Shown in pieces: positions 6,522 to 15,400 of a DNA stretch of 64,000 nt; within the stretch, counting starts at the first letter, position 1; each line of letters begins with the position of its first letter. Under the pieces are notes generated by a model. The model searched no databases. It was not told the origin of the DNA and saw nothing but the letters and a program-made list of their open reading frames with translations. The stretch is taken from the NCBI GenBank assembly GCA_039190745.1, contig JBCCXZ010000005.1, forward strand, positions 35,506-99,505, read 5' to 3'. Source of the DNA: Planctomycetota bacterium. Lineage in GTDB: Bacteria > Planctomycetota > Planctomycetia > Pirellulales > Lacipirellulaceae. The position numbers were made by a program, and so were the translations under genes.

Positions 6522-8165
6522 ATGAGAGGCCTTTTGATCGCGGCAGTTTTTGCTTTTTTCTCCGTCTCCGTCGCAACCGCACAGACCTACCGCTACGAAG
6601 CCGAGAACGGCTCGCTCGCCGGCAACGGCACTTCCATCCAGAACAACGGCGGAGCCTCCGGTTCCCAGTACGTCCGCTTCAACAGCGGCGACGCGGGCAA
6701 CGCCGTGACCGTCAGCCCCACCGACCTCCCCGACGGTCTCTACGAATTGTGGGTCGGCTTCCGCACCCCCTTCGGCGAGAAGGGCTACTACTTCGACGTC
6801 GGCGGCGTCTCCGGCAGCGGCATGTTCGACGCCTCCTCGGCGTTCAGCGAAGACCTCGCCGGGCTGTTCGCCGTCGACGGCGGCCTCGGCGCCGCCTCGG
6901 TCTCCCAGTTCTGGGGCTACCACGACATCGACTTCCTCGAGTTCCGCCCCTACCAGCCCACCGAAGTGCTCCCGGTGCCGGCGACGCTGGTCAACGAGAA
7001 CGCCGACCTCCGTACCCGCCAGCTCATGCGTTACCTCACCGACATCTACGGCGAGAAAACCCTCAGCGGCCTGCAGCACGACGTCCACTCCGGAACCAAC
7101 ACGTTCCCGCCGACCAGCTACGCCTCGAAGTCGGGCGGGCTGCTCCCCGCCGTCCGCGGCTCGGACCTCATGAACTACTCGCCGACCCGCGTGCAGTTCG
7201 GCCAGTCCGCCCACGACGAGGTCGAAGACACCATCGCCTGGGCCCAGCAAACCGGCGGGGTCGTCACCATGATGTGGCACTGGAACGCCCCCGACGACCT
7301 CATCAACCAGCCCGGTATGGAGTGGTGGCGCGGCTTCTACACCGACTCCACCACGTTCGACCTCGCCGGCGCCCTCAGCAACCCCGGCGGAGCCGACTAC
7401 GGCAAGATCATCAGCGACATCGACGCCATCGCCGTGCAGCTGCAGAAGCTGGAAGACGCCAACATCCCCGTCATCTGGCGCCCGCTGCACGAGGCCGAAG
7501 GCGGCTGGTTCTGGTGGGGCGCCCACGGAGCCGACAACTTCAAGGCCCTCTGGAACATCACCTACGACCGCCTCACCAACCACCACGGCCTCGACAATCT
7601 CATCTGGGAATTCACCGACCTGGGCGACCCCGAGTGGTACCCAGGCGACGACGTCGTCGACATGATCGGCTTAGACATCTACACCGACCCCACCGACAAC
7701 ATGAGCGGCCCGTGGCTCGACGCCCTCGAGCGCTACAACGGCAACAAGCCCATCGCCCTCTCCGAGTCCGGCACGCTGCCCGACGCCGACGAGATGGAGC
7801 AGTGGGGCATCGCCTGGAACTACTTCGCCACCTGGAACGGCTTCGACAGCGCCTTCACCGCCCAGCAGCTGCAGGAGACCCTCGGCGACGAAGACATCCT
7901 CACCCTCGACGAACTCCCCTGGTTCCCCTGGGCCAACACGCTCCCAACCGACGGCGACTACGACAACGACGGCGACACCGACGTCCACGACCTCCTCTGG
8001 TGGCAACGCTGGGACGGCTCCGCCGAAGGCCTGTCGAGCATCGAGGACAACGCCGGACAAGGCTCCACGGCAGCGAATGTCGCGACAACCCCCGAGCCAA
8101 CCGCCGCAGTCCTCGCCGTGCTCGCCGTAGCCGGCTTCGTGCACACCCGCAGACGCACGCTCTAG
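6522..8165 (+). CDS. Secreted GH26 beta-mannanase with N-terminal CBM35-like module, dockerin-like repeat and PEP-CTERM tail
   Basis: Signal peptide; YEAENG; MWHWNAP; WRPLHEAEGGWFWWG (acid/base); WYPGDDVVDMIGLDIY; ALSESG (nucleophile); DGDYDNDGDTDVHDLLWWQR; TPEPTAAVLAVLAVAGFVHTRRR. Confidence 0.92.
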   Translation: MRGLLIAAVFAFFSVSVATAQTYRYEAENGSLAGNGTSIQNNGGASGSQYVRFNSGDAGNAVTVSPTDLPDGLYELWVGFRTPFGEKGYYFDVGGVSGSGMFDASSAFSEDLAGLFAVDGGLGAASVSQFWGYHDIDFLEFRPYQPTEVLPVPATLVNENADLRTRQLMRYLTDIYGEKTLSGLQHDVHSGTNTFPPTSYASKSGGLLPAVRGSDLMNYSPTRVQFGQSAHDEVEDTIAWAQQTGGVVTMMWHWNAPDDLINQPGMEWWRGFYTDSTTFDLAGALSNPGGADYGKIISDIDAIAVQLQKLEDANIPVIWRPLHEAEGGWFWWGAHGADNFKALWNITYDRLTNHHGLDNLIWEFTDLGDPEWYPGDDVVDMIGLDIYTDPTDNMSGPWLDALERYNGNKPIALSESGTLPDADEMEQWGIAWNYFATWNGFDSAFTAQQLQETLGDEDILTLDELPWFPWANTLPTDGDYDNDGDTDVHDLLWWQRWDGSAEGLSSIEDNAGQGSTAANVATTPEPTAAVLAVLAVAGFVHTRRRTL

Positions 8166-8171
8166 GCGTGG

Positions 8172-8191
8172 GATGGGTGTATCCACCCATC
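8172..8191 (+). terminator. Hairpin after the GH26 gene (terminator or REP-like)
   Basis: GATGGGTG-tatc-CACCCATC, a perfect 8-bp stem just after the stop, with only a weak U-tract. Confidence 0.45.
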
Positions 8192-8417
8192 ACTTCTCAG
8201 ACCGTCCATTAGACGCCGATGGACATGCGCGCTTACCCCCACGTCACTGCTGAGGTTCTAGATACTTCTGGAAGTTTGCCACTGCGAAGTGGCACGCCGA
8301 GAAGGAGCAGAGTTCGACCGAACCGACCACAAACCACCGATGTGTTTGTGTACGACCGATTCAGCGCCTGCGCGGGCGATTGCCTAGGCGGACAATCCCG
8401 CGAAGCCATCCGCTACT

Positions 8418-8432
8418 TGCAATCTGATTGCA
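8418..8432. promoter_or_regulatory. Perfect 7-1-7 palindrome, candidate Fur-family (Zur-like) operator
   Basis: TGCAATC-T-GATTGCA upstream of the thioredoxin-like and DUF1826 genes. Confidence 0.55.
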
Positions 8433-8499
8433 TGTGGGTACGATATGCGTGAACGAGCCAACCGTGCTCACGTACCTTGTATCTACGGCAGCGGAACCG

Positions 8500-9108
8500 A
8501 TGTTGTCCCGAAGTCTTGCACGCTTGCTAAGCCGACCTGAGACCGCGAACAAACGGCAAGTCATTCGACTTCGCTCATGGCTTGCTGCCCCAGGCGGACG
8601 AACCACGCCGCGAATCCGCGCTGAAGCAATAGCCAACAGGTTCCTTGCCTCACAGGTAGCTCTTTGCTTCCTGCTGGTAGCGACCGGCTGTCGCGTTGCC
8701 CGCAACTCACAGCCCGATCCCAGGACTATCGAATCTGTTTCTTACGTGACGGTAGACGAACTGGCCGCTTCGCTGTCTACGGACAGTGACTCTACGGACA
8801 GGAACGTTGTGCTTGTCGAGTTCTGCGTTCCTTCTGGTTGCCCCCGTTGTGATGAGATGCGCGCCCCTATCGACCGGTTGGCGAGCGACCAAGGACAGCG
8901 GCTTGAGGTTCAACGCGTGAATCTCCGCCGCGAGCCCGCCGTCGCTTGGGAGCTGGGAGTCACCGTTTGCCCGAGCTACATCGCGTTTCGTGACGGTCAA
9001 GAGGTGTTTCGGGCGGCTTACCCGACATCCGCCGAACGCATTGCCGCGGAACTCGAAGAGTGCCTGGACATGTCTCCAGCCGATCCGCAGGTATTCGCCG
9101 AACGCTAA
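8500..9108 (+). CDS. Thioredoxin-fold protein, probably exported/lipoprotein; start uncertain
   Basis: VVLVEFCVPSGCPRCDEM (CxxC plus an extra Cys), VTVCPSYIAFRDGQEV (cis-Pro loop), hydrophobic VALCFLLVATGC lipobox-like segment. Confidence 0.7.
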   Translation: MLSRSLARLLSRPETANKRQVIRLRSWLAAPGGRTTPRIRAEAIANRFLASQVALCFLLVATGCRVARNSQPDPRTIESVSYVTVDELAASLSTDSDSTDRNVVLVEFCVPSGCPRCDEMRAPIDRLASDQGQRLEVQRVNLRREPAVAWELGVTVCPSYIAFRDGQEVFRAAYPTSAERIAAELEECLDMSPADPQVFAER

Positions 9109-9303
9109 CCAACGGGCGTAATCCAACAACGTGAGGGCCTGCCATAACGAGAAACCCTCCCACCTCTGGCCCTGGAGCACGACCGACAGGGCCACACATA
9201 GCCAAGGTTCATTTTGAGGCCCGCGTGCGCCACCCCGAATCAGCGGCTTGGAAGCACCCGCTTTGATCGTGCGCAGTATTGGATTAGGAGGACGAGAACG
9301 CAC

Positions 9304-9855
9304 ATGCACCCTGTTGCAACAGAAACCATCACCGCCTGGAACGCAGAAACGGTAGCTGATTTCGCCGCCGGCAGCCCTGACATCCTGGTGCTGAAACGAC
9401 CCCCACTAAACAACCTCGGCCCGGTTGTCCAGGCAGGGCGCATCCACGAGTTCCTGGCGACCGTCCGTCGCCAGAAGATCGCTCTAGAGGTCCGAGCCGG
9501 GCTGGGCGAGTTTCGAATCAGGTCGCCCGAATTGGCGTCCGACCTCATCAACCTGCTAACTTCGTTCCTCGACCAGTTTGACCTGCCGGAAGCCAGGCTC
9601 CGGATCGAGATCTCTCGGTCGCAGCCGTGTCCAAAGTTCCACAGCGATAACATCCACGTACGGATGGTCACCACCTACGTCGGCCCAACCACCGAGTACC
9701 AGTACGCCGGAGAGAGCACCACCCACGCCGCCCCGCTGCAAGGGCTTGTGTTCCTCAAAGGGAACCATCACCCCACCCACCACGACACGGTGCACCACCG
9801 CTCGCCAGAGGTACCGGCCGGCGAAAAACGCTTATGCGTGGCGATCGACTACTAG
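9304..9855 (+). CDS. DUF1826 domain-containing protein
   Basis: CPKFHSDNIHVRMVTTYVGPTTEY, VFLKG and HRSP match the DUF1826 pattern (CPRFH.D...RL..TY.G.GTEW / LKG / HRSP). AGGAGG lies upstream. Confidence 0.85.
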   Translation: MHPVATETITAWNAETVADFAAGSPDILVLKRPPLNNLGPVVQAGRIHEFLATVRRQKIALEVRAGLGEFRIRSPELASDLINLLTSFLDQFDLPEARLRIEISRSQPCPKFHSDNIHVRMVTTYVGPTTEYQYAGESTTHAAPLQGLVFLKGNHHPTHHDTVHHRSPEVPAGEKRLCVAIDY

Positions 9856-10021
9856 GTTCTGGTCGTCGACGGCTCAACGCAGTGTCGATCTAACTCCCCT
9901 CATTGCCTCAAGATCGGCGACAATCGAAGTAGCCATAAAAAATTAGTATGCACCACCTGGATTGGCTGGAAGCGCACATCCGCTTCGCCACTAACGTAGA
10001 CGCCTATACGAAGGATAAACC

Positions 10022-10243
10022 GTGAACGACGACCACGCCTTCCCTTCCTCGTACGAGCAGTGGCGGCACTGCATCGAAGGCATCGGCAAGATACGACTGA
10101 CGCCGAGTTACCTCAGCAAGCGCCTGTCAGAACTACAGGATGAGAAGAATGCAAATACCCGTGAGTTTTCTAGGCTCTACGGAAACGATCGCCTCCAGCG
10201 AACCATCGAGTGGTTCCGTCGGGCGGCTGACGAATTGACCTGA
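10022..10243 (+). CDS. Small conserved-looking hypothetical protein (73 aa)
   Basis: RBS AAGGA before GTG. The P.SYEQWRHCI...LT..YL..RL..L......T..F.RLYG......I.WF.RA pattern looks like a real small-protein family; no name assigned. Confidence 0.65.
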   Translation: MNDDHAFPSSYEQWRHCIEGIGKIRLTPSYLSKRLSELQDEKNANTREFSRLYGNDRLQRTIEWFRRAADELT

Positions 10244-10695
10244 GTAACTCGAACACAAGCGGCGCCAAGAGTTGCTTGCCGAGACGGTCACTAAGCGGCG
10301 TGCGGCAGCATAGACGCAGGTATCGCACGCAGCGTCGGGCCGCCCCTTCGTGCTTCGCTCACTCGCTGAAACAACTGGGTTCTAGTCAAGCGGACGCGAG
10401 ACTGCAGCGCCAGCTTTCCGGTCCAACACTCCTGCTGCAAGAAGAGGCTCGCGCCTACGGAGAAGCACCACCTGCCTCACATCCAGGCAGTCGAACCGGA
10501 CGCACACTAAGTGGTCCAAACACCTACTCAGCAAGGCTTGCCTAGCGAGATGGAAATCGAATCAAGTCACTGCAGTATCCGTAGAACAGTAGTGGCAAGT
10601 AGCGATGATCAAAAAATTATGATTATCGACAATTAAGAAAGCTTGCGGCGAGTGACGAGGGATGCGAGATTGGTTTGCAGAATTGTGAGCCTACT

Positions 10696-11169
10696 ATGAA
10701 CGCATCGCCTCTCAGGCGTTCTATCACCGCCCTGCTTGTCACGCAGCTTGCCCTCCTGGGACTCACAGGAGAGTCGCTCCACTATTTGCTGGAGCCGAGC
10801 AACCCTCTCACCGAAGCGGGACAGCAACAAGCGGACGGCGAAAAGCACGTCCACTTCCACCGTCACGGCGCAGACTACCATTGGCACGCACACGCCGTAC
10901 CCTCAGTAAGCCGAGCGTCAGCGTCTGAGAATGTCAGAGAGGACGGCGTCGCCGATGCCGTCCGGATGCCGGCATTCTGCCACACACAGCACGCCTGCCC
11001 GGTCCTGAGCGCCCTCTCGGCACTCGAGGACGCGACATCGCAACACTCTGTCTTCGAACAGGTTGCTAATCATCAGCGGTTGCTGCGGAGCCAAGCTTGG
11101 CTCTGCTGGGATTGCGATCATTCTCGTGCCAACACCGCACGCGGACCGCCGGCTACCCCCTTCGGATAG
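10696..11169 (+). CDS. Secreted His-rich protein with C-terminal RGPP motif (DUF2946-like putative arrest-peptide leader)
   Basis: N-terminal hydrophobic segment (RRSITALLVTQLALLGL), HVHFHRHGADYHWHAH, CHTQHACP, C-terminal TARGPPATPFG*. Confidence 0.7.
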   Translation: MNASPLRRSITALLVTQLALLGLTGESLHYLLEPSNPLTEAGQQQADGEKHVHFHRHGADYHWHAHAVPSVSRASASENVREDGVADAVRMPAFCHTQHACPVLSALSALEDATSQHSVFEQVANHQRLLRSQAWLCWDCDHSRANTARGPPATPFG

Positions 11170-11361
11170 CTCTGTTCTCGGTCCACTTCGATGAGTTTCT
11201 CAGGGTCGGTACGCGCTAAGCCCGTCCACTCCAGCCCACATCCGGGCGTAAGTCGGTCGACGAAGCAGCTTAGCGTTCCCGCCACTCACTCTCGCTGAAA
11301 CGCACTCGGCCGCCCCCGCCAATGTGTGGCGGTGCGCCATCGCCTAAGGAAAACAACTCTC

Positions 11362-12291
11362 GTGAAGACTCGAATCCCTATCTTCTGTTTACTCGCCTTC
11401 GCGGCCGCCTGCGCAGGCTTCTCCGGCGAAGCCCACTCCCACGGCCTGCAGATCCTGCTCGACTCGGACGGGTCAGGCGGCCTGCTAGGCGGGTACGCGA
11501 GCGGCCCGCACCCACGCGTGACAGGCGTCCAGATCGACGAGGCGCTGTTGTGGGACGAACGCGTCCGCTACGCACCGGACTACCCCAAAGACCTCGCGAA
11601 CGGCATACCGGGAACCCTCCTGCCGGGCGACCCGCCAGTAGAGATCACTTGGCAAGGGCACAAGTACCTGATCGAGTACCACCCCGCCGAGTGGGATACC
11701 CAACTCGAGTGGCGGCTGGCGCCAGAGTCGAGCGACTTCCCAGGCGTCACGCCGTTGCGCGGCGCCTTCGAGGAGATCAACGCACACTACGGCGACGGAA
11801 CGCTCGACCTCCGTTTCAATCTGCAAGGGCCGCTGCGGCGATGGGACGGAGGAGCGTTCACGCCCGCGACCGACGCAAGCGTGAGCCTCACTAGCCAAGA
11901 CTGGCCCGAACCAGACGACGGATTCTGGTACGTCGAGTTGCACGACGAAGTGACGTCCTCAACCGGTGTTGTCTCCACAGTTCCTTACGATATCTCGTGG
12001 TCCGGCTACGACGACGGCGAGCACTGGCATTACCTGTGGACCCTCAACGGCCCCGACGAGCTAACGCCCGCCCCCGAGGGCGTGTACCTCGTCGAGTTCA
12101 CAATCAGCAGCGGAGACGGCGGCGTGGAGAGCCACCCGATGTGGCTGCTGCTGCGGCAGGGCCTCGACGCTAACTCGGCGACCTACCTTGCCGCGGAGGC
12201 GGCGGCAATCGCAGCGGTCCCCGAGCCCGCCGCACTCGCCGTCGCAATGCTCGGCGTCACGGCGCTGACTGCACGCCGGCGGAGGGCCTAA
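11362..12291 (+). CDS. PEP-CTERM surface protein with predicted mature N-terminal His and HWH motif (putative metal-binding)
   Basis: RBS AAGGA then GTG 11362; signal peptide ending AHS|HG; EHWHYLWTL..PAPEGVYLVEF; VPEPAALAVAMLGVTALTARRRRA. Confidence 0.85.
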   Translation: MKTRIPIFCLLAFAAACAGFSGEAHSHGLQILLDSDGSGGLLGGYASGPHPRVTGVQIDEALLWDERVRYAPDYPKDLANGIPGTLLPGDPPVEITWQGHKYLIEYHPAEWDTQLEWRLAPESSDFPGVTPLRGAFEEINAHYGDGTLDLRFNLQGPLRRWDGGAFTPATDASVSLTSQDWPEPDDGFWYVELHDEVTSSTGVVSTVPYDISWSGYDDGEHWHYLWTLNGPDELTPAPEGVYLVEFTISSGDGGVESHPMWLLLRQGLDANSATYLAAEAAAIAAVPEPAALAVAMLGVTALTARRRRA

Positions 12292-12294
12292 ACC

Positions 12295-12990
12295 ATGGGG
12301 CCCCCGCTCCGCCGGGCCGGGTTCACCCTTGTCGAGCTGCTCGTGGTGATCGCCATCATTGGAGTGCTCATCGCCATGCTCTTGCCTGCGGTCCAGGGCG
12401 CGCGGGAAGCCGCGCGCTCGGCCGCCAGCAAGAACAACCTGCGGCCGATAGGCCTCGCGGTGCAGATGTACTGCGACACGCACGACGGCGTGTTCCCCGA
12501 ACTCGACCACAGCTACGGCGAAGACTCACGCTCGTGGATTTTCTCGCTCGAGCCTCATGTTGAGTCGGTCGACGCGATCCGCATCTGCCCGACCGACGAG
12601 TTTGGCGATGACCGGTTGAGGCTCGACATGTCGAGCTACGTCCTGAACGACTACCTCGTTGGCGAGGTCGAGTGGGGCGTGCGCGACCGCGACAAGCTGC
12701 AAGCGACTACCAGGACCCTGCTCGCCATGGAGATCGCCGACCCGCCTCAGGACGCTCACGGCCAACCGGACGTGACCGCCCAGTACGAGCACGCCCACGC
12801 TAGCGCGTGGTTCACGCCCGGGGCGATCACCTTCGGACTGGTCCAAGCGAACGTCGAGAAAGACATCTGCCTCGACCGGCACAGCACCGGTTCGCACTAC
12901 CTGTACGTCAGCGGCCACGTGAAGACCATCTCTGCCGCGCAGGTCCACGAATGGATCGATCAACCGCACGATTTCGCGCGTCCGCAGTGA
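12295..12990 (+). CDS. DUF1559 / prepilin-type N-terminal cleavage domain protein with H-X9-DG-like C-terminus
   Basis: [69 protein letters not shown]. Confidence 0.9.
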
Positions 12991-13017
12991 CGCGCTCCCT
13001 AGAAAGGACAGGAAACA

Positions 13018-13908
13018 ATGACGACGCGCACGTGCTACGCGTTCGCGGTGATGGCGGCCCTGGCAGCCGCCCCAACCGTGCTGGGCCACGGGACACCGGC
13101 GGATGTAACGGCTGTCGGCGGCCAATTGACCATCACCGGCAACGCCCCAACTACGCCCGGCGGTTTCACCGACCAGCTCTTCGCCGAGACAATTACCGGG
13201 TCGGCCCTGATACCCGTTTCGCAAGATCGGCTCTTCACAGACTTCCCAGGCGTCGACATCACCGGCATCAGCGTCGGGTCGGGACTCTGGATCGAGCCCC
13301 TCATGCTCGACGCAGACCCGGGGCCCGGGGTCTCGCCGAGGGGCGTCTGGTGGTGGTCGCCGATCTCGGAGGAAGTTGAGCCGCTGGACGAAGAGTTCCG
13401 TATCGACCTGATCTCAGCCCGAGGCTTTGGGGTCACAAGCCTTGCCCCTGACGAAGCGATCGCCGAGCCCCTTGAGATCATGGAGCCCCTGGCCTCAGAC
13501 CTCAACAACCACCGCCACCCACTCTATTACGTCGTGCCTAACGGCTCTGTAGCCCCGACCGGGGCATTTGCCTTCTTCGCAAAGCTCACCTCGCCGACGT
13601 ACGATTCGTCTGAACCCTTCTTGATCGGCCTCAACCACGGTCTCGGGGCGACTCAGTTTGTCGAAGCCGTTCAAGCGATCAACGAAGCGGCGGGGAGTGT
13701 TCCGGGCTTCTACGACCCCGACCCCGACGGCGACGTAGCCGACCTCATGGCGTGGCAGAGGACCGACGGGACAACGCAATCGCTTACTAGTTGGGAAACC
13801 TACTTCGGCGAAGGGGCTTCTCCGATAGCGGCGGCCATCGGCGTGCCCGAGCCCTGCTCAGTAGTTCTGATGCTCGTCGGGACATTGTGTTTCCGTTCGC
13901 GCCGATAG
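13018..13908 (+). CDS. Second PEP-CTERM surface protein with predicted mature N-terminal His and HRH motif
   Basis: Signal peptide ending VLG|HG; NHRHPLYYV..APTGAFAFFAKL; DPDPDGDVADLMAWQR; VPEPCSVVLMLVGTLCFRSRR. Confidence 0.85.
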   Translation: MTTRTCYAFAVMAALAAAPTVLGHGTPADVTAVGGQLTITGNAPTTPGGFTDQLFAETITGSALIPVSQDRLFTDFPGVDITGISVGSGLWIEPLMLDADPGPGVSPRGVWWWSPISEEVEPLDEEFRIDLISARGFGVTSLAPDEAIAEPLEIMEPLASDLNNHRHPLYYVVPNGSVAPTGAFAFFAKLTSPTYDSSEPFLIGLNHGLGATQFVEAVQAINEAAGSVPGFYDPDPDGDVADLMAWQRTDGTTQSLTSWETYFGEGASPIAAAIGVPEPCSVVLMLVGTLCFRSRR

Positions 13909-13946
13909 GCCGAGTCGCCACTCGCAGAGATAGCCGGGCGGAAGGT

Positions 13947-13978
13947 GGAAGAAGTGGCAACGCAGCCACTCCTCTTCC
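13947..13978 (+). terminator. Hairpin downstream of the PEP-CTERM/DUF1559 operon
   Basis: GGAAGA-AGTGGC-aacgca-GCCACT-cc-TCTTCC followed by a pyrimidine run. Confidence 0.45.
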
Positions 13979-14052
13979 CCCCTCTTCGTTGAAAATAGCC
14001 ACCTGATCGGGTATACACTAATACGCCCTCAGCGCCCGCTCATTGATAACTC

Positions 14053-14396
14053 AGTCGTAAGCACGTAGCCGTCTGCCCTTAGCCAGACGAGCGCCGTGCC
14101 CTCTCTTCGTCTCAGCCCGTGTGCGTAAGGTCGCTTTCGTCCTCAGAAGCCGGGAGCACGTGCGCAGAACGAACTAGACGCCAACCGAACCCGAAGCGAC
14201 CTAACGCCATCCGGAAGAAACACTTCCAGTCACGGCGTCACACGAGAGCATGACGACTTCTGCAGAGCCCCCAAACACAAAACCCCGCAGTTTTGTCACT
14301 GCGCAACTAGCCGCGACTCTACAAGTCGCTGGAGAACCCAAGCCCCGGCCCGACAAAACCAACCGATTCTGTCCACGCCACGCGTGTAGGGCTCTG
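14053..14396. ncRNA. Candidate structured non-coding RNA or structured repeat element (unassigned)
   Basis: At least ten mutually compatible nested helices in a ~510-bp gap between convergent genes (see findings). No recognisable Rfam signature. Confidence 0.3.
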
Positions 14397-14419
14397 AGAG
14401 GTCAATAAAGAATGAGGAG

Positions 14420-15400
14420 TCACCGAACGCCAAAGCACTCGATCTCCAGCCCCGTCAGCTCCTCGGCAACCGCAGCCGCGCTCGCCGGCCGGCGGAGCGG
14501 GTCCTTCGCGAGCAGCCGGTGCACCAGCGACGCCACGCCCTTGGGCAGCGTCGGCACGAGGTGACGCACACAGTCGGGCGTCACTTCGCGGTGCTGGCGG
14601 ACAAGTTCCTCAGGCGACTCGGCTTCGAGCGGCAGCCGGCCGGTGATCAGCTCGTAGAGCGTCACCCCCAAGCTGTAGAGGTCCGCCGCAGGCCCCGCGG
14701 TCATCCGCGAGGTCACCGCTTCGGGTGCCACGTAACCCAGGCTCCCAACCACCGGCCGCTGGGTCCAGTGCAAGCACTCGGCCGGTGTTTGAGCAAAGCC
14801 CAAGTCGATCAGCGTCGCGTGCCCGTCGGCGGCGAGAACGATGTTGCCCGGCTTCACGTCGCTGTGCACGGCGCCCGCCGTGCGGTGCAACGCTTCCAGC
14901 CCCTCGGCAACCTGACGCACCGCCCACAGCATCGTAGGCAACGGCAGCTCACGCTCGCCGACGTACCGCGACAGTGGAACCCCGCCCAACAGCGGCGACA
15001 CCGTGTAGAAAGGCGGCTGCTGAACGCCCGACGAGAGCACCGGCAACAGGTGCGGGTGCGAAACTCTGGCCCCGATCCAAGCCGCCCGCCGTTGGAGCTG
15101 GATCGCCACCGGGTCGGCCCACCACTCCTTCCGCAGCACCTTCACCGCGTAAGCCGGCGGCTGCTGCGACGGAGACGACTCCGATCGGGCGGCGTACACC
15201 CGGCTGAGCGGACTCTCATGAATCAGCCGCACCAACTGCCAGGGGCCGATGCGGCCCACGCCGTCGACGGTGTTATCAGTACCCGCGAACCCCACCATCA
15301 GCGGGGCCCGCGGCGCAGACGCCGAGGCTTCTACCGTTGCCATACGCGTTCGAGCTGTCTTCGAGAGGAGCTGGGTCGCAGCGGCGCGGGTTGCAGTCAA
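14420..15400 (-). CDS. Hanks-type Ser/Thr protein kinase (kinase domain only; alternative start ATG 15343)
   Basis: YAVKVL, HPHLLPVL, VHSDVKPGNI, LIDLG, GSLGYVAPE, ADLYSLGVTLYELITGRLP, LLAKDPLRRP. Confidence 0.9.
   Translation of the reverse strand: MTATRAAATQLLSKTARTRMATVEASASAPRAPLMVGFAGTDNTVDGVGRIGPWQLVRLIHESPLSRVYAARSESSPSQQPPAYAVKVLRKEWWADPVAIQLQRRAAWIGARVSHPHLLPVLSSGVQQPPFYTVSPLLGGVPLSRYVGERELPLPTMLWAVRQVAEGLEALHRTAGAVHSDVKPGNIVLAADGHATLIDLGFAQTPAECLHWTQRPVVGSLGYVAPEAVTSRMTAGPAADLYSLGVTLYELITGRLPLEAESPEELVRQHREVTPDCVRHLVPTLPKGVASLVHRLLAKDPLRRPASAAAVAEELTGLEIECFGVR

Follow-up and report, generated by a model that had tools for sequence, protein, structure and literature searches.

What governs the three small surface-protein genes that sit behind a 157-aa open reading frame (ORF) in a Planctomycetota bacterium of the family Lacipirellulaceae (GenBank assembly GCA_039190745.1)? 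The window examined here is a stretch of 64,000 nucleotides (nt) of contig JBCCXZ010000005.1 (positions 35,506 to 99,505 of the forward strand), and a preliminary description made from its letters alone had proposed that the ORF is a metal-sensing leader that arrests its own ribosome. The ORF is a genuine conserved gene with ~80 relatives, and from its sequence we take it for a true arrest leader of CruR-like build, belonging to a His type that is new and confined to one family, outside DUF2946 by the tests that define that family, with a function that we infer. In the reading that we prefer, to which we give a probability of about one in two, the C-terminal RGPP stalls the ribosome while metal is scarce, whereupon the three surface genes are transcribed, and histidines of the nascent chain bind a metal, zinc being the likeliest, and so release the ribosome. 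The elements named at the outset (the 157-aa ORF, a His cluster, the motif CHTQHACP, RGPP at 11140-11151, and a spacer of ~190 nt, exactly 192) are all present in the sequence, as follows.

10696..11169, + strand: leader ORF, predicted His-type CruR-like arrest peptide, 157 aa from ATG
10708..10791, + strand: N-terminal hydrophobic helix (residues 5-32, ending GLTGESLHY), a candidate signal or membrane anchor, with a per-residue model confidence (pLDDT) of ~80-90
10858..10893, + strand: His hairpin H55-x-H57...H64-x-H66, a predicted beta-hairpin with strands 52-57 and 62-67
10981..11007, + strand: motif H96-x-x-H99-x-C101-x-x-L104, at the CxxC register, 44 residues ahead of Arg149
11140..11151, + strand: RGPP, the predicted arrest core, 5 codons ahead of the stop
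11170..11361, + strand: spacer of 192 nt, with no intrinsic terminator called and no Rfam family
11170..11181, + strand: pyrimidine-rich tract directly after the stop, a candidate Rho-loading element

The strongest evidence comes from the relatives of the leader. A word-index protein search gave 177 candidates, none at E ≤ 1, and whole-genome and hidden Markov model searches then recovered the family. Among 120 genomes of the same family there are 25 matches, of which 20 are full leaders and are counted below; the other five (E 0.001-0.01; four with internal stops) contain no leader ORF and were dropped before counting. RGPP ends all 20 homologues, 4 to 10 residues ahead of the stop, and is present also in all nine homologues whose alignment to the query ended short of the motif. 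Its Arg and its Gly are each encoded by all four codons, and because these codons vary freely, the peptide itself is what is kept. By comparison, RGPP is scarce in a crude set of long ORFs of this genome (9 seen versus 20 expected; 31 versus 33 for the control, AGPP). A profile search of 1.84 billion representatives (E ≤ 1e-10) gives 87 protein clusters: 80 with RGPP, 2 with RAPP, and 5 without the motif, the last being likely fragments or frameshifts whose match ends by profile position 124. The resulting 82/87 for R[GA]PP leans towards the motif, because the search profile includes RGPP; even so, the predicted retention of RGPP in homologues is borne out.

Only G25, H55, H57, H64, H66, H99, R149, P151, and P152 are invariant across 77 aligned leaders, with L14 and G22 of the N-terminal segment kept in at least 90% of them. 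The ORF evolves under purifying selection (ratio of nonsynonymous to synonymous substitution rates, 0.31 versus a same-genus orthologue), and the leaders end in TAG in 16 of 20 cases, versus 45% of long genes in this genome. His-type leaders occupy 22 loci in 20 of the 120 genomes; other families of the same order supply one match in 267 genomes (CxxC type), and a sample of 400 genomes of the phylum supplies matches in five besides this one (one CxxC type, four weak, with E ≥ 1e-4). Among the genomes searched, CxxC-less His-type leaders are found only in this one planctomycete family.

The second line of evidence is a ruler of fixed length. Measured without alignment, the distance from His99 to Arg149 is 50 residues in all 20 loci, with zero variance, and a His occupies position -50 relative to the Arg in 81 of 82 leader clusters. 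Position -45 is Leu in 81/82 and position -53 is His in 71/82. The hairpin His are kept in 77/77, and Cys is found at -48 in 70/82. Conversely, the linker from the His cluster to HxxH varies from 29 to 43 residues. Between Leu104, which stands where a second Cys would, and the Arg lie 44 residues in 20/20 loci, within the 45 ± 2 expected of CruR, and a hydrophobic helix at -47 to -36 is kept in the His-type leaders. The N-terminal hydropathy of 2.2 over 12 residues is that of a signal or membrane segment, as in DUF2946/CruR. A CxxC of the window leader (C137-x-x-C140), 9 residues from the Arg, is absent from the other leaders of the 20.

This geometry raises the question of kinship with DUF2946 (PF11162; cut-off, 23.7 bits), and here the proposed comparison gave a divided answer. 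The nearest ESM Atlas cluster to the leader is DUF2946, at a score of 0.96; the leader is also placed beside two clusters without a name, in which the few members that carry a label are planctomycete. Pfam and NCBIfam scans of the leader protein found no match, PF11162 in particular matches none of 77 His-type leaders at E ≤ 1, and CxxC occurs at the register in 0/82 clusters. Because both the motif and the profile fail, His-type leaders lie outside DUF2946 by its defining tests, with a geometry that is nonetheless CruR-like. There is also a sister group: weaker profile matches carry CxxC at the same register in 41 of 50 cases, these sisters have 43-45 residues between CxxC and the Arg, and the two groups are homologous end to end (hhalign 99.5%, E 3e-22). 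Among 30 weaker-grade, mostly CxxC proteins, PF11162 matches six, the best at 18.5 bits, below its cut-off.

Taken together, we propose the following mechanism. By analogy with known peptides, the leader very probably arrests the ribosome: RGPP is a strong arrest core, and in vitro arrest is documented for CruR and seven Streptomyces RAPP/RGPP peptides (PMC12992588). The P site would hold Pro151 during the stall, in line with the toeprint of CruR. Given the length of the ribosome exit tunnel, the 50-residue ruler would place His96/His99 and the helix that follows at the tunnel mouth. The four hairpin His likely form a metal site, and metal bridging the HxxH motif and the hairpin would let the chain fold and pull, so that translation completes; that the arrest is gated by metal we consider probable. 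The freed RNA, pyrimidine-rich after the stop, would then be terminated by Rho inside the spacer, leaving the cassette on when metal is scarce, a polarity that we favor with somewhat less assurance than the gating itself. In CruR, with 45 intervening residues, CxxC is needed for copper control, inserting five residues greatly weakened the copper response, and the system acts through Rho (PMC9426467).

What the leader would control are three tightly spaced, co-oriented genes, as the preliminary description had it.

11362..12291, + strand: gene 1, PEP-CTERM surface protein 1, with His at the predicted mature N-terminus (11440) and an HWH motif (12022-12030)
12295..12990, + strand: gene 2, DUF1559 prepilin-type protein of a His-bearing subfamily, with HAHxxxWF at 12790
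13018..13908, + strand: gene 3, PEP-CTERM surface protein 2, paralogue of protein 1, with His at the predicted mature N-terminus (13087), HRH (13510-13518), and a predicted beta-sandwich

Their assignment as PEP-CTERM, pseudopilin, and PEP-CTERM is secure for gene 2, which exceeds the cut-offs for DUF1559 (PF07596; 41.4 versus 23.3 bits) and N_methyl (PF07963; 31.8 versus 21.2). It is less so for genes 1 and 3, whose tails score just under the cut-offs (gene 1, 19.1 versus 20.7 in Pfam; both genes, 12.6 and 13.7 versus 16 for TIGR02595), although the PEP, hydrophobic stretch, and basic tail are visible and two homologues lie above the cut-off (29.1 and 20.0 versus 16). The leader is consistently first in its cassette, upstream of DUF1559 and PEP-CTERM genes, as had been anticipated: a DUF1559 pilin lies within ~2.2 kb in 20/20 loci and co-oriented PEP-CTERM genes in 17/20, the first gene being a pilin in 16, a PEP-CTERM gene in 3 (this locus, G031, and G071), and FmdE in 1. 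No TonB receptor or copper-homeostasis gene, the cargo expected of a CruR leader, comes first behind any of the 20, and in agreement with the proposal of a system without such a receptor, this genome (95% complete) has no PF00593 match to a TonB-dependent receptor.

The cargo would catch metal at the cell surface by means of its His-tipped beta-sandwich proteins and His-bearing pilin. H-x-H-x(1-4)-WF is found in 18 of the 22 pilins behind His-type leaders, and the PEP-CTERM cargo forms one unnamed family, in which H-x-H is at least 90% conserved in 33 proteins (its first His is invariant by construction, because the sequences were cut there). The 33 mature domains match no NCBIfam family beyond two single weak matches, no PDB sequence matches under E 0.79, and Foldseek finds no structure at E ≤ 0.001. 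The best VIA-align result (Z 6.5, root mean square deviation 3.9, 136 aligned) reflects a common Ig-like arrangement, and an ESM Atlas score of 0.87 to the "metallo-mystery pair four-Cys" cluster is a lead only. Elsewhere in the window, a PEP-CTERM-type anchored GH26/CBM35 glycoside hydrolase (6522-8165) is unrelated to the cassette.

Related cargo is headed by more than one type of leader. His and Cys types coexist in this genome and in seven others (four of the seven were checked as CxxC). This genome has two more RGPP leaders, both of the CxxC type and both on contig C12: one heads a pilin and two cargo paralogues, and the other has a ZigA-like GTPase operon on one side and an ArsP-type permease on the opposite side. 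A third class (L003:342-920, L010:391-993, L011:2471-3109), ahead of related cargo, has a membrane segment, a CxxCxCGC...CWRDCCC cluster, and a polyproline C-terminus, with no RGPP and no Pfam match, and is possibly a CutF-like stalling leader. A quick tree built from 52 pilins requires at least four changes of leader type on starred branches, and it places the pilin of the window together (support, 92) with the pilins of G016 and G006, both behind Cys-rich polyproline leaders without RGPP. Because leader type switches across this tree, leaders have likely been exchanged over cargo.

Some cassettes of these relatives deserve mention in their own right. At L049 (G066:C61:57447-58506), a His-type and a CxxC-type leader stand back to back, with a separate pilin/PEP-CTERM cassette behind each. 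The leader of L102 (G068) is intermediate: it has part of the His hairpin, together with HDHVCPP, but no CxxC, and the pilin of that locus clusters with those of His-type cassettes. CxxC cassettes (L107, L113, L118-L121, and L049) often carry a second RGPP/RAPP leader downstream, in several cases directly before ZepA/All3515, which gives a predicted two arrest leaders per gene cluster.

The exchange of leaders admits a bolder interpretation, which we hold tentatively and with well under even confidence: planctomycetes might possess swappable nascent-chain sensors (Cys RGPP, thiol-independent His RGPP, and Cys-rich polyproline) over the same cargo, with the His type reading another metal (nickel or cobalt) or another compartment (the periplasm) than its Cys sister. 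If so, it would be the first switch by ribosome arrest to answer a metal besides copper, and would show that exchanging Cys for His, on a ruler fixed at 50 residues, changes the metal specificity.

Which metal, then, does the leader sense? In our preferred reading zinc ranks first, and nickel or cobalt second, on account of what lies upstream.

8418..8432, no strand: palindrome TGCAAT-N3-ATTGCA, a likely Zur operator, 2.3 kb upstream of the leader and heading the co-oriented upstream genes
8503-9108, + strand: thioredoxin-like gene, behind the Zur-like box
9304..9855, + strand: DUF1826 gene, known to occur beside COG0523 genes under Zur control
10022-10243, + strand: 73-aa ORF of no known family, upstream of the leader

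By sequence, these four elements (8418-10243) likely form a Zur-controlled string; their GC content is 54-61%, versus 65% for the genome, and DUF1826 occurs in Zur-regulated clusters (PMC2770081, PMC5786701). No + strand terminator is called between 10240 and the leader. The exact palindrome has four copies in the genome, versus 0.02 expected and none at nine other spacings, and is single in the window. Two copies occupy the interval that separates a Fur-family gene from the adjacent ZigA-like GTPase gene, and the fourth (G000:C43:29312, L132) lies upstream of a flavin-dependent oxidoreductase gene. The region G000:C12:24579-28809 contains three TGCAA-N5-TTGCA-type boxes, the Fur-family gene divergent from the ZigA-like GTPase gene, a membrane gene, a CxxC RGPP leader, and the ArsP-type permease; we infer zinc as the metal of this Fur-family regulator. 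Both CxxC leaders of this genome carry near-matches to the Zur-like box. Related cassettes carry ZepA, a tested zinc-uptake protein (PMC10957091), which we count for zinc. If the arrest is metal-gated, zinc is thus slightly favored as the metal sensed.

Several findings weigh against parts of this reading. ZepA lies less than 6 kb downstream of 0/22 His-type leaders (0/11 in ZepA-bearing genomes), versus 12/36 weaker-grade leaders, kin in this count not being independent; 24 of these 36 were examined (23 CxxC, 1 intermediate), and 9 of the 12 followed by ZepA were checked as CxxC. The 21 related His-type leaders have no exact box upstream and one two-mismatch box, whereas the exact box lies upstream of 2/17 CxxC loci; because related loci lack it, the zinc context is peculiar to this window and lies at a distance of 2.3 kb. 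The cargo has no homology to ZepA (hhalign 5.5%). At a predicted template-modeling score of 0.31, the leader model, which has an anchor helix, a beta-hairpin with four His, and a long helix starting at residue 102, does not establish contact between the hairpin His and the HxxH site. The excess of C over G in the spacer is modest, and CutF, another DUF2946-type leader, has the opposite polarity (bioRxiv 10.1101/2025.02.05.636593).

Finally, nickel or cobalt is suggested by some neighbours of His-type leaders: HupE/UreJ, which lies directly upstream in both G008 and G028 (two loci of one genus), FmdE directly downstream in G001, and a corrin methylase upstream in G071. The switch might be the same and the metal different, with nickel/cobalt (or copper) read by the His-type leader and zinc by the CxxC sisters that share its genomes. 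Sites made of His alone suit Ni and Co, the CxxC leaders rather than the His type are the ones that ZepA and the Zur-like box accompany, and both types sit together in this genome and in seven others. Yet only 4 of 21 loci have such neighbours, drawn from 72 chosen among 161 neighbouring ORFs, both leader types head homologous cargo, and the upstream context in this window is zinc-type. We consider this account unlikely, though it survives best of the alternatives.

Leader-to-next-start spacers measure 75-192 nt across the 20 loci. At least 9 of the 12 nt after the stop are pyrimidines in 13/20 leaders, versus 8.6% of 1558 long genes of this genome (kin are not independent here either), and the genome has two Rho-domain genes. 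The C-richness of the spacer that had been pointed out is real in the window (70 C to 48 G) but fades among homologues, where mean C/G is ~1. Similarly, the pairing of GGACCG with CGGTCC occurs in the predicted window fold (probability, ~0.64) and finds no support as a switch: the fold of the region is no more stable than those of shuffled sequences (z -0.15), and only 3/20 homologues have the complement within 60 nt of the stop. When the footprint of a stalled ribosome is forced open in equilibrium folding, the start region opens by >0.1 in 1/20 loci and closes in 1, and the mean unpaired probabilities compared are 0.39 and 0.40. Unmasking of the start site as in SecM is not predicted by folding across the 20 loci. 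Given the Rho genes, the pyrimidine tract, and the lack of an intrinsic terminator, a Rho route as in CruR would fit better than unmasking as in SecM or CutF. An Rfam scan of 8000-14500 gave no matches, a promoter consensus scan called no site at 10240-14300, and a motif search of the 160 nt upstream of the 20 leaders found no shared palindrome. The block at 10620-10695 is common to the window and G001 despite differing upstream genes, which suggests that the leader has its own promoter, although the consensus scan called none.

These results bear on the reverse arrangement, in which metal sensed beyond the membrane would trigger or lengthen the stall, and the halted ribosome would expose the ribosome-binding site downstream, so that metal excess induces the cassette. 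CutF works in this way and requires its signal sequence (bioRxiv 10.1101/2025.02.05.636593); the anchor is conserved here, a thiol-free site would survive an oxidizing periplasm, and the pilins nearest to that of the window sit behind Cys-rich polyproline leaders. However, the start region responds to the footprint as little as described above, the downstream start lies 75-192 nt beyond the stop, and sister cassettes carry an uptake protein, all of which makes this polarity improbable.

We give equally little credence to an export monitor of the SecM/ApdP type, in which Sec pulling frees the stall, the His are structural, and the leader tunes surface-protein output to export capacity. An N-terminal anchor with RGPP is the layout of Sec-monitoring peptides (PMC12992588), the hydrophobic helix at -47 to -36 is conserved, and all of the cargo is exported. 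Such monitors would be expected ahead of sec or yidC genes, which lie behind 0/20 leaders; there are, moreover, five invariant His and homology to CxxC leaders, and the export signal of CruR is dispensable (PMC9426467). That the ORF encodes nothing more than a small His-rich membrane protein for storing or passing on metal, with no regulatory role for RGPP, accords with its His content and purifying selection but is very improbable, as planctomycete proteomes strongly disfavor RGPP (mean bias, 0.15; PMC12992588), which is nonetheless kept here with free codons, the ruler is fixed in length and free in sequence, and the leader is always first.

How, under the CruR-like reading, does the locus compare with known systems? 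With CruR itself (Bp2923, DUF2946/PF11162, of Bordetella pertussis; PMC9426467) it shares an export-type N-terminus, a metal motif 44-45 residues from a C-terminal R-x-P-P, a place as first gene of the operon, and a long spacer. It differs in having no CxxC (the second Cys is Leu, and 6 of the 20 leaders have neither Cys), an extra four-His hairpin, RGPP rather than RAPP, no PF11162 match in 77 members, and DUF1559 and PEP-CTERM cargo in place of a TonB receptor or copper genes. The RAPP/RGPP upstream ORFs of PMC12992588 are likewise small secreted-type ORFs with a C-terminal RAPP/RGPP ahead of metal genes, and many are His-rich. DUF1559 is among the 30 downstream products enriched behind RAPP upstream ORFs in its source data (112 versus 68, 6.5-fold), so that DUF1559 behind a RAPP leader is on record there, and the preliminary description, which knew of no such combination, is only half right; the main text of that paper makes no mention of DUF1559, PEP-CTERM, or zinc. 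The 29 DUF1559 rows examined are RAPP leaders, His-rich and mostly CxxC, and four His-type motifs plus HACPVL have no matches in part of the RAPP list, though the RGPP list may hold these leaders. In the literature found, outside that RGPP list, there is no description of a CxxC-less His leader or of a metal role for DUF1559. What is new, as judged from sequence, would be the CxxC-less His subfamily of one planctomycete family and the three kinds of leader that replace one another ahead of related cargo.

CutF of Rhodobacter capsulatus (bioRxiv 10.1101/2025.02.05.636593) shares with this leader an exported nascent chain, a metal motif, and a proline-rich stall site governing the next gene; its PPP with EF-P dependence, copper-induced stall, and stem-loop over the ribosome-binding site are not seen here. 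The metal-gated arrests that we find tested in print, CruR and CutF, respond to copper through cysteine motifs. On the cargo side, ZepA (All3515, NF040463; PMC10957091) of Anabaena shares PEP-CTERM, an Ig-like beta-sandwich, a conserved H-x-H, and a mature N-terminal His, but NF040463 (cut-off, 75 bits) matches no protein of the window or of this genome, and the profiles match at only the 5.5% given above. A role that can be tested, the capture of metal at the surface without TonB receptors, is thereby proposed for this unnamed PEP-CTERM domain and for one His-bearing branch of DUF1559, a very large uncharacterized family. Also close are the planctomycete CxxC RGPP leaders, with full-length homology, a 44-residue ruler, and homologous cargo in common: theirs have CxC and CxxC, with ZepA downstream and sometimes a Zur-like box upstream, whereas the His group has HxH...HxH and HxxH, and a natural pair of both in one genome provides a clean test of metal choice and of release by folding and pulling.

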